A program made the position numbers. From an uncultured Haloferula sp. (GTDB taxonomy: Bacteria > Verrucomicrobiota > Verrucomicrobiia > Verrucomicrobiales > Akkermansiaceae): 64,000 nt of DNA. Of the stretch, positions 45,001-51,000 are shown in pieces; positions within the stretch are counted from its first letter, which is position 1; each line of letters starts with the position of its first letter. Location of the stretch: contig CBFGTS010000008.1 of NCBI GenBank assembly GCA_965652295.1, forward strand, positions 64,001 through 128,000, read 5' to 3'.

Positions 45001-48000
45001 AAAAGAAAGGCTACCGGATGTGGTCCGATCCACGGGGACGCAGCATTTTCGCGAAGCTGGTGGCGTATCGGAAAGGCACGCTGCTGCTGGTCGAACCGGA
45101 TGGCACCCGCGCCCGCACCAAGGAGAGCCAGCTTTCTCAGAAGGATCAGGACTGGATCGCCCAGCAGAAACGGCTGCGCGGGATCGAGTGATGGCTCAAG
45201 TCCCGGCCGGCGTCTCCCCGGACGAGGGGCCTTGCTGATAGATGTGCACGTCGCGCTGCGGGAAGGGGATGGAAATGCCGGCCTTGTCGAACTCGACCTT
45301 CACGCGCTTGGTGACATCGGACAGGACCGTGAGGTAGTCGCTGGTCTTCGACCACGGCCAGCAGATGAAGTTCACGGACGAGTCGGCCAGCTCGCGGAGT
45401 TTGATGTTCGGCTCCGGGTCCTTGAGTACCAGCGGATGCTCGGTCACCACGCGGCGGATGATTTCCTCGGCGAGGTCCATGTCGTCGTCGTAGCCGATGC
45501 CGAAGGTCATATCGACGCGGCGGGTGTCCATGCCGGTGATGTTGGTGATGACCTGGCCCCAGACCTCCTTGTTGGGTACGATGACCTTGCGGTTGTCGAA
45601 GGTGAGGATCGTGGTGCTGACCAAGCTGACGCCGTCCACCTTGCCGAGCACCCCGGCGATTTCGACCGCGTCGCCGACATCGAAAGGGCGGTTGAACATC
45701 AGCATCATGCCGCTGGCGAGGTTGCCGAGACTGTCCTGGAGTGCAAAGCCGAGGATGAAGGCTCCGCCTCCGATCAAGGCGAGGGCGGCACCGACGTTCA
45801 CGCCGAGGGTCCCCACTGCGACGATGAGGCCGAGAATGAGGATCACCCGGCGGGTCCACGTCTGGATGAATTTCCGCAGCAGTCCCGAAACGTGCGAACC
45901 CTTCGCCAGGGCGCGCTCCGTCAGCTTGGCCACGATTTTCGCAAGGACCCAGAACACCACCATGATGCCCGTGAACTGGAGCACGGCGACGGCCCAGTGG
46001 AGGCCTCCATCCTCGGCGAGCAGCCATTGCCGGACGTTGCTAAAAAACGACCGGACATCCTTCGGGTCGGATTGGATACCTTCCACCGCGGCGGCGTAGG
46101 CCCGCTCTTTTCCCGAATCCCCGCCTTTGACCTCGAAGGCGTCGAGGACCACATCGAAGCGTTCGGAGAGCTGGTCTTTTTCCTCCTGTAGTTCGTCCAG
46201 GCGTCTCTGGATTTCCGCGCGACCGGCTTCCGGAGCCGTCCGCAGGGCGATCTTCTGGTCCGCCACTTCGGTGGCCTTCGCCTTCAGGAGTGCCTGCCAG
46301 CCATCGATTTCCGTGCGGATTTCATCCTGGGTGAGAGGATCCAGGCGAAGAGCCAGAACCTCGGGATCGACCGCGACGTCCACCGTCACGGCGGCGGCCG
46401 TTTCCTGCTGCGCGGAAGCCGGGCAGACGAGGACTGCAAAGGCGGCGAACAGCGGCGGCAGGAATCTCATGAGGTATGGCATGATAGGGCTACCGTGGGG
46501 AAGTAGCGGCTCACGTCAAGCAGGGGTGCCCCCCTGCGCGGTTTCCGATTTCTTTGGGTCGAAAAACTTCTTGCGCGGGTCCGGCGATTCTCCTACCAAC
46601 CGCGCACCCCGCTCCGGCGGGCCTGATCCGAATCTTTGAGGAGGAAAAGGGGCATTAGCTCAGTTGGTAGAGCACCTGCATGGCATGCAGGGGGTCAGCG
46701 GTTCGAATCCGCTATGCTCCACCACTCCGCGCTCGCGGAGTGTGGGGAGGAAAGTCGCCCTCCACGCCCGACGAACACTGTCAGCATCCATCCCGTGTGT
46801 TTCCGTAAGTTGGCAGATGACGAAGAATCGGGAATACTGATGGAGATGCGTCGCGTGACGAACATTTCCGCTTACCATTTCGCCCCCCTGCGGGACCTGC
46901 GGGAGCTGCGTCAACACCTGTTGGATTTCTGCCGCGACCACGACCTCAAGGGCACGATTCTGCTGGCTCCGGAGGGCATCAATCTTTTCGTCGCGGGTCG
47001 GCATCTGGCGATCGAGGAGCTGGTGTACGAGCTCCGCACGATCCCGAGCCTCGAGCACCTCCTGCCGAAGTACAGCGAGAGCGACGAACAGCCGTTCAAC
47101 CGGATGCTCGTCCGGCTGAAAAAGGAGATCATCGCTTTCGGCGTCGACGGCGTGGACCCGGTCCGCGAACCGGCCCCGCGCATCAAGCCGGAGGAGCTCA
47201 AGGAGTGGCTGGATGCCGGAAAGCCGGTCGTCCTCTACGACACCCGCAACAACTACGAGATCAAGCTCGGCACCTTCAAGGGAGCCATCACCGCCGGGAT
47301 CGATCGCTTCCGGGATTTTCCCGACGCCGTGGGGAACCTGCCGGAGGAAATGAAGGACGCTCCCGTGGTGACGTTCTGCACCGGCGGAATCCGCTGCGAA
47401 AAGGCCGCGCCCTACATGCGGCAGGCGGGCTTCAAGGAGGTTTACCAGCTTGAGGGCGGGATCCTGAAGTACTTCGAAATGGTCGGAGCCGATCACTACG
47501 AGGGCGAGTGCTTCGTTTTCGACCAGCGTGTGGGTCTCGATCCCGCCCTGCGCGAGTCCGGCTCGGCCGTTTGTTTCGCCTGCCAGACGCCCCTCACTGC
47601 GGAGGAGATGGAGGATCCGCGTTACCTGGAGGGCGAGTCCTGCCCGCATTGCTACGTCAGCGATGAAGCCAAGCGGCAGGCGTCGATGGTCGCCCGTCAG
47701 ACAGCGCTCGATGCGGCCGCCGACCCGCTTCCTGGAAGCCTCCCGTACAACAACCTCAAGCCGATCCGCATTCCCGCCAGCCAAGCGGGGAAAACCTTGC
47801 TCGGTGCGCTGGACGGCCTCTTTCCTTACTTCGGACGTGAGCAGTGGCTCGGTCTCATTGAGGCAGGGCGGATTCTTTCCCCGGAGGAAACTCCGGCAGC
47901 CGCCGACCGCGTGGTGAAGGATGGGGAGCAGTACATCCGCTCGCTGCCCGGTACCATCGAGCCGCCGGTGAACGCGAAGATCACCCTCATCCACGAGGAT

Positions 48001-51000
48001 GAGGCCTTGTGGGCGGTGGACAAGCCGGCGCCCCTGCCGATGCATCCCTGCGGTCGCTTCAACCGCAACACGCTGGAGTATCTGATGCGCCAGGCATGGG
48101 CTCCGGAGGTTCCACGGCCGGCCCACCGGCTCGACGCCAACACCAGTGGTGTCGTGGTCGGCGCACGCACGCGGCATTTTGCGAAGCTGCTGCAGCCGCA
48201 GTTTGCCCGCGGAGAGGTGGAAAAGCGCTACCTGGCCCGGGTTCACGGTCATCCGGCGGAGGACCGGTTCGTGATCGAATCGCCGATTGCTGCCGAAGCC
48301 AGCGGTCTGGGCGCGCGGGAGATCGATGAAGACGGTCTGCATGCCCGCACGGATGTCCAGGTGCTGGAGCGCTTCGACGATGGCACCGCGCTGTTACTCA
48401 TCGAGCCCCGCACCGGCCGCACCAACCAAATCCGGATTCACCTCTGGGAAAAAGGTCACGCAGTCGTCGGTGATCCCGTGTATTTGCCCGAAGGAGGGCG
48501 CGGTGGGAAGCAGACGCTGGATCCGTCCGATCCACCGATGCAACTCCACGCCTGGTGGATCCGCCTGAAGCACCCGCTGACCGGCGAGAAAATGCGCTTC
48601 ACCGTCCCGGTCCCGAGTTGGGTGCCGAGGGAAGCGGTGTCGCCGGAGCTGGCGGACTGCGCCGATTGAAAGGAGAACGGCCTGTTCTGCCAGCTTGGCA
48701 AGGGACGGCGGAATCGGCCGGGTATCAAGAGCCGCCGTACGTCAGTTGCGCCTTCAGCCCGAGGATCGAGTCCTTGCCGTGCCCTGCGGAAACGGAGATC
48801 CGCAACCTCGCCGTTTCCCGTGGGACGGTGGGGTAGCGGATCGGGGGGACGATAAAGCCTGCTTCCTCAAGAGCCGCGGAGGCGGCAAGGGCGGCTTCGT
48901 TCCCGCCGATGATCCGCGGGATGATCGGGGTGCGGGCACCCGGCGAGAGCAGGCGGATGTTCTCGCGCAGACGGCCCCGGAGTTCGAGACCTTCCTGGGA
49001 ACGGATCAGCTCGATCGATGCCTGCGCCGCGTGGGCCAGCGCGGGGGGCGGGGCGGTGGAGTAGATGAACGAGCGGGTACGGTTGACCAGAAGATCCCGC
49101 CAAGCCGCTGAACAGGCGAGGTAGGCACCGGCGAGACCGGCGGCTTTTCCGAGGGTGCCGAGATGGAAATCCACCCGATCCTGCACGCCCAGTTCCTCGG
49201 CGAGGCCCATGCCGGTTTTCCCGAGGACGCCGAGCCCATGGGCTTCGTCGAGCAGCAGCCGGGCACCGAATCGTTCCTTGAGGTCGAGGATTTCGCGCAG
49301 CGGGCAGAGATCGCCATCCATGGAGAAGACGGACTCGGTGACGATCAGGATGCTGCCCGTAGCATCCTTCGCCCGGATCGAGGAAAGGAGTCGCTCCAGC
49401 TTGGCGAGGTCGTTGTGGGGAAAGACGCGGAGGGTGGCCTCGGAGAGCCGGGCACCGTCGATGAGGCAGGCGTGGGCAAGCTTGTCGAGGATGACATGGT
49501 CGCCCTTGCCGACGAGCGCGGGGGTCACGCCGGTGGCGGCGGCGAAGCCGGAGGAAAAGGTGAGGGCCGCACCGGTGCCCTTCGCTGCCGCCAAGCAATC
49601 TTCCAAGAAGGTGTGAGGCGGCTGGGTGCCGGTGATCAGGCGCGAGGCGGCGGCGCCGTGGCCCCAGCGGTCGAGGCCTTCATGAAACGCGGCGCGAAGC
49701 GCGGGGTGTTCGGCGAGGCCGAGGTAGTCGTTGGAAGCGAAATTCCAGAGCTGCCGGCCGTTGCGCAGAACGCGGACGCCGGTGGGACCTCCGAGCGGGC
49801 GGAGGGTGCGGAGCAAGCCCGCCTGTCCGAGGTCGGCGAGGTGTTGCTCCGGGTGCATGCAAGGGTGAGAGGCTTGGCGGATGGAATCCGCCGCCACGAA
49901 TCAGAGGCGCGGCGATTCGAGAGCCCAGCGCAGGAGTCGCTCGGAGTCGTCCCAGATGTGCGAGGAGTTGCTTTTCAGTACGACGACGATGGCGGTGCGG
50001 CCGTTCAATTCGCCGGTGCAGACGAGGCAGCGCCCGGCGGCGTTGGTGGTGCCGGTTTTCATGCCGTTGCAGTAGGAGACCCGCTTGAGGACCTTGTTGG
50101 TGTTTTCCAGGAACTTGGTGCGGCCGCCGGCATATTGAAACTGGTAGCTCCGGGTGCCCACCCACGAGCGGATCGCGGCGCTGCGGTAGGCATGGCGGGC
50201 GGCAATGGCGATGTCCCGGGCGGTGGAATACTGGCCGGGGGCGGGAAGGCCGTTCGGGTTGACGAAGTTCGAATTCCGCATCCCGATCGACCGGGCCTTG
50301 CGGTTCATCATGGCGGCGAAACCTTCCTGGGAGCCGCCCATGTCACGGGCGAGTGCGCGGGCGACGTCGTTGCCGCTCTTGACCAGCAGGGCCTTGAGCA
50401 GGGCGGCGCGGGTGTAGGTTTCGCCGGGGCGGAGGTAGAGCTTGGTCGGCTCGCAGGAGGTGTCGTCGTGGGTGACGGTGACCGGGTCGTCCAGCGGGCC
50501 TTGATCGAGCGCGACGAGGGCGGTGACGATTTTCTGGGTCGATGCCACAGGCCGGACCGAGTCGGCGTTTTTGGCGTAAAGCACCTTGCCGGTGTGGGCG
50601 TCGATGACGATGGCGCTCTCGCCATAGACCTTCGGCGGCGCCACATTGGGGATGGCCGCGGCTTCCTCCGGCACCGGAGCGACGGGCCCGCGGGCGGGCG
50701 GGGGAGCAGGTTCACCGCCGCCGCAGGCGCTGAAAGCCAGCGAGGCGAGAAATGGGAGAATCAGTCGAAAGGATCGTTGCCTGAGCATTGCGGCGGATCA
50801 AAACGCGGCCGGGCCGGACTGGAAAGGCGATAATCGGAGAACAGGCAGGCAGAATCCCGCTTCCGGAGCGGCCGGAGGGTTGGGGTCATAGCATGTAAAA
50901 TGCACAAAAATTTTGAATAAAGTTGCTGCTATGAAATCGAACGTTCGGCAAGACGCAACCGGTGGATGACGGATGCCCGGGAATGGGTTTCAGTACCACC

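Follow-up and report, generated by a model that had tools for sequence, protein, structure and literature searches.

A conserved fusion of TrhO with an RluA-family pseudouridine synthase that may modify shared tRNAs

A gene joining TrhO to a pseudouridine synthase

Within the window, the 64,000-nucleotide stretch of an uncultured Haloferula genome analysed here, positions 46840–48669 of the forward strand translate as one open reading frame, stop-free over 609 amino acids. A longer, TTG-started frame from 46636 was rejected as the gene because tRNA-Ala(GGC), at 46649–46724, lies inside it. Residues 1–272 of the protein form a complete TrhO, with a UPF0176_N domain, a rhodanese domain carrying a CTGGIRC loop and a four-cysteine zinc ribbon, while residues 275–597 form a synthase module made up of a helix, an S4-like domain and an RluA-family catalytic domain:

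46840–48669, + strand: whole gene, TrhO plus pseudouridine synthase, 609 aa plus stop; continuous open reading frame
46858–47130, + strand: UPF0176_N domain, aa 7–97; Pfam PF17773, E 2.2e-24, 86.1 bits (cut-off 26.2)
47188–47472, + strand: rhodanese domain, aa 117–211; Pfam PF00581, E 4.6e-11, 43.5 bits (cut-off 22.2)
47377–47397, + strand: TrhO active-site loop CTGGIRC, aa 180–186; read from the DNA
47572–47652, + strand: TrhO zinc ribbon CxxC...CPxC, aa 245–271; four Cys invariant across five aligned rows, E. coli TrhO among them
47662–47721, + strand: helix, aa 275–294, first element of the synthase module; AF2 model
47737–47955, + strand: S4-like domain, aa 300–372; TIGR00005 and RluD alignments
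48007–48444, + strand: RluA-family catalytic domain PseudoU_synth_2, aa 390–535; Pfam PF00849, E 8.2e-27, 94.7 bits (cut-off 26.8)
48124–48135, + strand: HRLD with catalytic Asp432, aa 429–432; read from the DNA

A preliminary description had proposed that a complete TrhO is joined here to an RluA-family synthase, with these Pfam boundaries and with both catalytic motifs (CTGGIRC and HRLD) retained; all of this was borne out, and the fusion proved to be conserved.

TrhO (UPF0176) is known as YceA in Escherichia coli and YbfQ in Bacillus subtilis. It is described as an O2-dependent tRNA U34 hydroxylase (Sakai et al. 2019, PMC6599085). The fused half is 31% identical to E. coli TrhO and scored above the cut-offs of NCBIfam NF003703 (337.9 bits over aa 6–276; cut-off 331) and of the TrhO equivalog NF001133 (248.3 bits; cut-off 170); Pfam Rhodanese_C was sub-threshold at aa 221–253 (17.9 versus 26.9 bits). 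It also matched Lpg2838 (41% identity, TM 0.82) and B. subtilis TrhO as seen in its complex with tRNA-Ala (9j5o), and the rhodanese domain matched PDB entries 4f67 (E 3.1e-52) and 9j5o (E 3.7e-39). The UPF0176_N domain terminates with a basic strand, RMLVRLKKE, whose R92 and K94 align with K112 and R114 of E. coli TrhO, where K112A/R114A is described as abolishing activity (Sakai 2019, PMC6599085). Across 26/26 fused proteins C180, G183 and R185 of the active-site loop were invariant, and G182 and C186 varied; the three invariant residues are equivalent to E. coli C200, G203 and R205. Together with T201, these are the residues described as essential in E. coli (Sakai 2019, PMC6599085), all of them are kept here (C180, T181, G183 and R185), and the invariant and variable loop residues of the fusions mirror the essential and dispensable ones from that mutagenesis. 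The zinc ribbon directly precedes the fusion junction, after which a 320-aa synthase module stands in place of the E. coli tail. Relatives have unfused TrhOs at 64–66% identity, and a change of substrate is therefore unlikely for this half.

The genome searched (4.37 Mb, 98% complete) holds one PF17773 match, the fused gene, which is its sole TrhO, as had been claimed. The reported absence of cmoA, cmoB and trmR was also upheld: TIGR00740 (CmoA) and PF01596 (TrmR type) had no match in the genome, and TIGR00452 (CmoB) reached at best 26 bits against a cut-off of 275. This setting, with none of the three detected to process ho5U, differs from that of E. coli TrhO, and ho5U34 may therefore be the final wobble base in this genome. 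There was no TrmJ above cut-off in the genome, so position 32 may be without 2'-O-methylation. PF00849 occurs in five genes, with no clear RluC orthologue among them. No conserved gene neighbourhood was found around the fusion, which adds no pathway evidence.

The synthase module and its relatives

The helix at the start of the module is predicted to pack on the catalytic domain, with aa 279–296 contacting 379–387 and 414–420, and stand-alone relatives match from query aa 265–285 onward. Behind it, the TIGR00005 match spans aa 315–593 from model position 3, RluD residues 11–302 align to aa 312–593, and full-length RluD (2ist) aligned structurally over 320 columns; we name the domain S4-like because Pfam S4 gave no match at E ≤ 0.1 in the protein. 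The catalytic domain includes KRY (aa 462–464) and GRTNQIRIH (aa 526–534), and H429, R430, D432, the KxY pair (K462/Y464) and GRTxQIR (G526–R532) were invariant in 26/26 fused proteins. It shares its fold and these three motifs with RluA, whose RNA-bound form (2i82) was structurally closest (TM-score 0.88, target-normalised; about 30% identity) and which was also the best PDB sequence match (96.8 bits). In the AF2 model (mean pLDDT 89.9; pTM only 0.61; aa 221–250 at pLDDT 57–73 by 10-residue block), the sole predicted interface is that of the linker helix on the synthase domain, with none between the two catalytic cores, and the model does not support a set geometry of one active site relative to the other.

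Its Pfam match assigns the synthase half to the RluA family, and by score it falls outside the curated TIGR00005 subfamily (180.2 versus 192.7 bits). In E. coli, RluA makes tRNA Ψ32 and 23S Ψ746, and RluC and RluD, the family members that carry an S4 domain, modify rRNA. The half scored below the equivalog cut-offs of RluA (NF007543, 94.5 versus 286 bits), RluD (86.1 versus 351) and RluC (75 versus 378). A quick tree with four reference enzymes (E. coli RluA, RluC, RluD and TruC) placed it in a clade of its own, of 39 rows (SH-aLRT 95), with RluA outside; the clade lay on the RluC/RluD side rather than that of RluA (SH-aLRT 84, arbitrary root). Orthology to RluA was rejected on the missed equivalog cut-offs, the separate clade and the presence of an S4-like domain, which is absent from RluA. 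The earlier step from ‘RluA-type’ to position 32 was found unsupported on the same points, to which the additional helix and the C32 of tRNA-Ser(UGA) are added.

All of the best 120 of 4742 homologues (E ≤ 1e-10) carried PF17773, PF00581 and PF00849, and the junction was present in 76/79 related loci from Verrucomicrobiota and Planctomycetota, confirming the occurrence in both phyla that had been described. The ESM-Atlas clusters cited earlier were recovered: three scoring 0.98, with 70, 53 and 59 members, and a eukaryote cluster (921 aa, 56 members) scoring 0.92. Among look-alike clusters the commonest phyla were Actinomycetota, Myxococcota and Acidobacteriota, which serve as leads only. Among sampled genomes the fusion is a minority state, found in 3/151 Verrucomicrobiota and 3/121 Planctomycetota. 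The preliminary description had called the fusion recurrent; its wide occurrence stood, but ‘widely inherited’ is the better term because domain order was identical across all bacterial copies seen and the TrhO halves of fusions group together on the tree. One genome (G191) encodes a stand-alone 321-aa relative of the synthase module (45% identity) and no UPF0176_N gene; the module therefore does not need TrhO. Sampled genomes with an unfused TrhO had no close relative of the module, only matches at 34–38% identity (shown for genome G144).

Some relatives have lost TrhO chemistry. The TrhO core was the better conserved half in 20/25 fused relatives, and in the other 5/25 it had decayed to 32–40% identity with a C[TAHD]DGxRS loop, the synthase module remaining at 42–50%; the basic strand was kept in three of these five. 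In a Povalibacter protein (P0217) exactly aa 127–244, the rhodanese domain, are missing, and UPF0176_N (basic strand included), the zinc ribbon and the entire synthase module (49% identity) remain; two further clusters have PF17773 and PF00849 without PF00581. The variants form a series from an intact loop (20/25), through a decayed loop with the basic strand (3/25), to the clean rhodanese deletion of Povalibacter. Because they lose rhodanese chemistry and keep the RNA-binding parts of TrhO and the synthase, shared tRNA substrates for the two halves are plausible.

Candidate targets and competing explanations

From the reading frame, domains, motifs and conservation observed, we infer, with a probability of roughly 0.55, a bifunctional tRNA-modifying enzyme, in which an orthodox TrhO and an S4-like-bearing RluA-family synthase would have their tRNAs in common. 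The tRNA sequences are of little help in choosing between possible target sites because U32 occurs in 19 of about 40 tRNAs of the genome. It is present in four of the five assembled U34 family-box tRNAs, tRNA-Ser(UGA) having C32; counted post hoc, all five have U at position 31 or 32, compared with 22/41 tRNAs overall. YjbO, described as an RluA-family protein with an S4-like domain, is the source of Ψ31/32 in tRNAs of B. subtilis, tRNA-Pro(UGG) among them, and the Staphylococcus aureus tRNA-Pro(UGG) with mo5U34 is described as carrying Ψ32 (PMC7408541, PMC13443448). It is only through this described precedent that positions 31/32 of the anticodon arm stay as the leading, if tentative, candidate target of the synthase half; position 32 itself is a guess.

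If the synthase half were instead the equivalent of RluA, it would make Ψ32 in exactly the ho5U34 tRNAs. The structural and sequence matches to RluA favour this, as do U32 in four of the five tRNAs and a position 32 that, with no TrmJ above cut-off, may be free of 2'-O-methylation. We nevertheless consider it improbable, given the low RluA equivalog score, the separate clade, the additional helix and S4-like domain, and C32 in tRNA-Ser(UGA). Moreover, the loop motif described for RluA, ΨUXXAAA (PMC13443448), has its counterpart here (U32 U33 N34 N35 A36 A37 A38) only in tRNA-Cys and tRNA-Phe and is lacking from the candidate tRNAs.

It is quite improbable that the module is an RluC/RluD-type rRNA enzyme, the fusion serving only to co-express two modifiers of the translation apparatus that share no substrate. 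Its scores are far under both equivalog cut-offs, rhodanese-less variants would hardly be expected to retain the tRNA-binding parts of TrhO if the module acted on rRNA, and the sampled genomes with unfused TrhO contain no close relative of the module. The S4-plus-catalytic layout, alignments to TIGR00005 and RluD that start at the S4 region, the side of the tree on which the clade lies and the want of a clear RluC orthologue in the genome all fit such an enzyme, but YjbO, as described, combines an S4-like domain with action at tRNA positions 31/32 (PMC7408541, PMC13443448). That one half is catalytically silent and only assists the other, by binding RNA or as a chaperone, is highly improbable for this protein: every residue known to be essential in E. 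coli TrhO (here C180, T181, G183, R185 and R92/K94) and every synthase motif is kept, conservation is higher in the TrhO core than in the synthase half in 20/25 relatives and the genome has no other TrhO. Such silence would suit the 5/25 relatives with a decayed TrhO half and P0217, as well as a genome in which no ho5U-using enzyme was found.

Proposed action and its meaning

In the bifunctional enzyme that we favour, the TrhO module would convert U34 to ho5U, dependent on O2, in four-codon-box tRNAs (Ala, Val, Thr, Ser, Pro and Leu), and the synthase module would convert a uridine to pseudouridine in tRNAs already bound by the TrhO module. The modules would be linked via the lower-confidence stretch ahead of the zinc ribbon. 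Sequential action on one bound tRNA would be expected, because no contact is predicted between the catalytic cores, and the RNA-binding parts of TrhO might also aim the synthase. Taken further, the synthase would recognise its tRNAs through the TrhO module, a single binding event would yield final ho5U34 and, through a YjbO-like module, Ψ31/32, and some lineages would have turned the enzyme into a targeting domain; this combination is possible, if rather unlikely as a whole.

In YjbO, as described, an S4-like domain likewise precedes the RluA-family catalytic domain, and the tRNAs that it modifies in the anticodon arm are without the RluA motif and include the mo5U34-bearing tRNA-Pro(UGG) (PMC7408541, PMC13443448); it is a stand-alone protein in B. 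subtilis and S. aureus, and the resemblance is one of described layout. RluC and RluD, which act on E. coli 23S rRNA, share the S4-plus-catalytic layout, RluD aligning over aa 312–593, but the fusion differs in its lack of a Pfam S4 match, its low equivalog scores and its separate clade. TrhO–TrmR fusions are described in Phytophthora and Phaeodactylum, where they served as a clue to a shared pathway (Sakai 2019, PMC6599085). In both cases TrhO is joined to a second tRNA-modifying enzyme, but TrmR takes the same nucleotide further (ho5U to mo5U), whereas the synthase must use another uridine and cannot act on the C5 chemistry of ho5U34.

The TrhO–synthase fusion is conserved in many relatives and previously unstudied, and a fusion of two enzymes is among the stronger hints of a shared substrate that sequence can give. 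Should both halves act on the same tRNAs, the protein would amount to a natural circuit in which a single polypeptide makes two anticodon-arm modifications. The phyla concerned have unmapped tRNA modifications, and in this genome ho5U seems to end the pathway instead of serving as an intermediate. Such a result would also bring a function to the entire clade of RluA-family synthases to which the module belongs, which has no characterised member and includes stand-alone forms. The variants whose rhodanese domain has decayed or been deleted provide a ready series on the change from a catalytic to a targeting domain.

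A TrhO–pseudouridine synthase fusion in one reading frame

The fusion of a tRNA U34 hydroxylase (TrhO) to an RluA-family pseudouridine synthase is real, and is encoded by one uninterrupted frame of 609 codons. A longer frame, opening at a TTG at 46636, was rejected as the gene because it crosses a tRNA gene; the start is therefore placed at the ATG at 46840, or at the ATG two codons on. The two features concerned are, in window coordinates:

46649–46724 (+): tRNA-Ala(GGC), 115 nt upstream of the fusion gene and on the same strand, with A32 and U38
46840–48669 (+): fusion gene, comprising TrhO (aa 1–272) and the synthase module (aa 275–597)

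The domains listed in the preliminary description were reproduced with Pfam (UPF0176_N, aa 7–97; Rhodanese, aa 117–211; PseudoU_synth_2, aa 390–535), together with a sub-threshold Rhodanese_C match at aa 221–253. Residues 6–276 clear two TrhO-type equivalog cut-offs, the curated score thresholds of NCBIfam (NF003703, 337.9 versus 331; NF001133, 248.3 versus 170). The closest solved structures are Legionella Lpg2838, B. subtilis TrhO and E. coli RluA and RluD, and the top homologue, from Haloferula sargassicola, is 86% identical, which marks the organism as a Haloferula-like verrucomicrobial.

We aligned 26 full-length fused proteins, hand-picked from 120 and 150 listed rows and spanning 38–78% identity. 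In the TrhO loop, C180, G183 and R185 are invariant and G182 and C186 are variable, a pattern that mirrors the mutagenesis of E. coli TrhO as given in an excerpt of Sakai 2019 (PMC6599085), with C200, T201, G203 and R205 essential and G202 and C206 dispensable. The E. coli basic-strand pair K112/R114 aligns with R92 and K94 of the fusion protein. Alignment with E. coli TrhO also assigns Cys 245, 248, 268 and 271 to TrhO's own zinc ribbon, and the junction therefore lies right behind a complete TrhO, at about aa 272–275. In the synthase half, KPAPLPxH, HRLD (containing Asp432), KxY and GRTxQIR are invariant across the 26 proteins.

The AlphaFold model of the fusion protein was confident overall (mean pLDDT 89.9; pTM 0.61), with a dip at aa 221–250. 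It places a helix (aa 275–294) and then a small domain (aa 300–372) N-terminal to the catalytic domain. The N-terminal S4 region of RluD aligns with aa 312–375 in both sequence and fold; the Pfam S4 model gives no match in the fusion protein at E ≤ 0.1, so we term this domain ‘S4-like’. When the two halves were folded as separate chains (cut between 296 and 297), they scored 0.76, against 0.47 for the best of three controls; 116 of 157 solved complexes attain the mark for this score, as do 2 of 215 mismatched pairs, a calibration that is approximate here, with our own alignment used. Contact agreement between runs was at least 97% and partner pLDDT at least 87, with confident contacts limited to helix 279–296 against 379–387 and 414–420. 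This interface adjoins the chosen cut and thus assigns the helix to the synthase module, and no more. Docking of the two enzymes on each other was accordingly rejected as a reading of these contacts, and the predicted two-chain fold gave no sign of contact between the catalytic cores.

Synthase clade, distribution and origin

The synthase half had been described as RluA-type, but the analysis did not support it as an RluA orthologue: it scores 94.5 against an RluA equivalog cut-off of 286, and E. coli RluA falls outside its clade. It is likewise far below the equivalogs for RluD (86.1 versus 351), RluC (75 versus 378) and TruC (61.4 versus 328); in NCBIfam it matches just the general model of the RluA subfamily, with 180.2 bits slightly under the cut-off of 192.7. 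In a quick maximum-likelihood tree of 45 hand-chosen rows (14 fused, 25 short relatives, four E. coli enzymes and two of this genome's paralogues), fused proteins and short relatives formed one clade (SH-aLRT 95). E. coli RluA, RluC, RluD and TruC and the paralogues are all left out of it, and we therefore regard it as a family of its own inside the RluA family; it lies on the RluC/RluD side (84) of a tree whose root is arbitrary. Some stand-alone ‘relatives’ turned out to be artefacts of gene calling on fused genes (members of 606 aa and 591 aa occur in clusters 7 and 10), so finding fused and stand-alone rows intermixed in the tree is no evidence of repeated fusion. A genuine stand-alone synthase (321 aa, 45% identical, on a 209-kb contig) was found in the compared genome G191, which has no UPF0176_N match. 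Look-alikes by features, of 298–334 aa, come from clusters with Actinomycetota, Myxococcota and Acidobacteriota as commonest phyla, and are leads only.

A scan with one genome per species gave 147 relatives, from which 79 loci were retained. Matches extend over at least 580 residues in 74 of these, two more are cut by contig ends yet cross the junction, and three hold an unfused TrhO (64–66% identity) and lack such a synthase within 4 kb. Going by record titles, eleven fused loci are from Planctomycetota (Limnoglobus roseus, Gemmataceae, Isosphaeraceae, Singulisphaera, Pirellulaceae, Planctomycetaceae and Mariniblastus) and 64 bear Verrucomicrobiota names (Haloferula, Luteolibacter, Prosthecobacter, Brevifollis, Akkermansiaceae, Verrucomicrobiaceae, Terrimicrobiaceae, Chthoniobacterales, Opitutaceae and Puniceicoccaceae); one further fused locus is an unclassified ‘uncultured bacterium’. 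In even samples of the two phyla the fusion is a minority state. Among 151 Verrucomicrobiota genomes there were three fused and at least 24 unfused TrhO, with 61 weaker matches beyond those listed; 121 Planctomycetota genomes gave three fused, six unfused and one stand-alone synthase relative, and 111 of them had nothing at E ≤ 1e-40. The ESM-Atlas clusters noted previously were also recovered, including the 921-aa eukaryote cluster.

The TrhO parts of 52 hand-chosen rows (17 fused, 32 unfused and three other fusions) were placed on a tree that one starred branch (95) splits into two groups. One holds 16 fused rows, four unfused rows and a TrhO–methyltransferase fusion; the other holds 28 unfused rows, two glutathione S-transferase (GST) fusions and one fused row. 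Taken with the unchanging domain order, this tree is consistent with one or a few origins and later spread, rather than with frequent re-invention.

TrhO has other partners too. Three clusters, one from a Myxococcales MAG, join it to GST (P0371, P0375 and P0358), and protein P0265 joins it to a class I methyltransferase domain and could be a new ho5U-methylating enzyme. Long synthase-containing frames in genomes G079 and G073 were rejected as further fusions, having only S4 and PF00849 behind an unannotated N-terminus.

Genomic neighbourhood

The window neighbours of the fusion gene encode a Na+/H+ antiporter, a thioredoxin-like protein, an MscS channel and tRNA-Ala(GGC), and a class I/II aminotransferase, a D-Ala-D-Ala carboxypeptidase and a ClpB-type AAA+ chaperone (by domain pattern only); no gene for an RNA-related protein is among them. 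When ORFs within 4 kb of the gene were clustered across 80 loci, no real family apart from the gene itself was present in more than 7 of the 80, an 11-locus cluster being rejected as an antisense ORF overlying the fusion gene. An 8-bp hairpin (ACTCCGCG..CGCGGAGT) without a T run follows tRNA-Ala(GGC). This tRNA was rejected as a pointer to function: 6 of 58 scanned loci have it upstream, all of them Haloferula-like or near kin, and it carries G34, not U34. Two others of the 58 have tRNA-Asp or tRNA-Leu(UAA) directly upstream. Separately, this genome has a partial second tRNA-Leu(UAA) (G000:C3:128889-128972 and 194769-194853, both on the minus strand, with 66 kb between copies), the partial copy having its 3′ part from position 32 on in common with the intact gene; such a pattern is left when an element integrates into a tRNA gene.

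A metatranscriptome run from soil (coded X1), in which 5% of sampled words were present, gave on this stretch only the tRNA, short pieces 90–95% alike and one exact 151-nt contig (window 47574–47724, depth 2) spanning the junction of zinc ribbon and synthase helix. This was too little to count as evidence of transcription.

A possible shared substrate and the wobble pathway

In 20 of 25 relatives the TrhO half is better conserved than the synthase half, and the nearest unfused TrhOs share ~65% identity with it. On sequence grounds, so ordinary and well conserved a TrhO half should still bind tRNA and hydroxylate U34. In the other five relatives the TrhO core is down to 32–40% identity, with a C[TAHD]DGxRS loop and very long TrhO branches on the tree, and the synthase module is still 42–50% identical; three of the five retain the basic strand. 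P0217 (Povalibacter sp., 470 aa, RefSeq; on 7 contigs) lacks exactly aa 127–244, a clean deletion of the rhodanese domain that retains UPF0176_N, zinc ribbon and synthase module, and two further clusters have the same Pfam pair. Variants lacking TrhO chemistry but keeping the RNA-binding parts and the synthase would be expected were the TrhO scaffold to steer the synthase to tRNA. Against a shared substrate, the module can exist without TrhO, as in G191, and no fixed geometry is predicted between the halves. In excerpts of PMC7408541 and PMC13443448, B. subtilis YjbO, a stand-alone tRNA Ψ31/32 synthase, belongs to the RluA family and carries an S4-like domain, a pairing that takes away the chief objection to tRNA as the target; the same excerpts give Ψ32 together with mo5U34 for tRNA-Pro(UGG) from S. 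aureus.

ARAGORN found 46 candidate tRNAs in the genome, of which ~41 look genuine; the assembly lacks tRNA-Ala(UGC) and tRNA-Ile, as is often so where rRNA operons are unassembled. Among the U34 family-box tRNAs in the assembly, five in all, U32 is present in Leu(UAG), Val(UAC), Pro(UGG) and Thr(UGU), and the fifth, tRNA-Ser(UGA), has C32 and U31. U32 is common (19 of ~40 real tRNAs), so its presence in the candidates says little. A post hoc count shows U at 31 or 32 in every one of the 5 candidates versus 22 of 41 tRNAs overall, which amounts to a hint at most; among the other non-universal positions, none has U in all five. We put the probability that the target uridine lies at positions 31/32 at about one in three. 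Another tRNA site is a less likely target, and rRNA less likely still. The RluA loop motif, as quoted in the excerpt of PMC13443448, fits only tRNA-Cys and tRNA-Phe in this genome. The genome's other PF00849 genes number four (RluD-like, a 255-aa RluA-subfamily protein without S4, RluB/F-like and RluE-like); TruA was found, and nothing reached the cut-off for TrmJ.

One UPF0176_N gene in 4.37 Mb (35 contigs, 98% complete) bears out the statement that this is the only TrhO of the genome. The reported lack of cmoA, cmoB and trmR stands as well: the genome has no CmoA, no Methyltransf_3 (TrmR-type) and, for CmoB, only a 26-bit methyltransferase match. A U32-family ORF was rejected as TrhP (211 bits versus 534, no equivalog). 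This ORF, the sole peptidase-U32 gene of the genome (G000:C24:39391-41883; L087 1222-3714), is of unusual length (at least 831 aa, with two U32 matches and the frame open at the locus end) and is also under the UbiU equivalog cut-off (181 versus 440). CmoB was above cut-off in 0 of 10 fused-TrhO genomes versus 4 of 14 unfused. A tie between fusion and loss of downstream enzymes was rejected: the nearest unfused genomes are without CmoB too, and Methyltransf_3 is patchy in both sets. Five Verrucomicrobiota genomes with fused or unfused TrhO (G000, this genome, and G144, G108, G099 and G024) have no CmoB above cut-off, and Methyltransf_3 is absent or marginal in them (best E 8.5e-5).

As had been noted, the architecture is already present in public annotation; among the matches listed, NCBI names are ‘sulfurtransferase’ or ‘RluA family pseudouridine synthase’, and the UniRef name is ‘tRNA uridine(34) hydroxylase’. 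A literature search, with most subscription journals outside it, found no study of a TrhO–pseudouridine synthase fusion. New here are the exact junction behind TrhO's zinc ribbon, the helix/S4-like/catalytic build of the synthase and its separate clade, the set of variants in which the rhodanese part is decayed or deleted, and the tRNA survey with the YjbO precedent. In these Verrucomicrobiota, either ho5U34 is the final base or an unrecognised enzyme completes the pathway.
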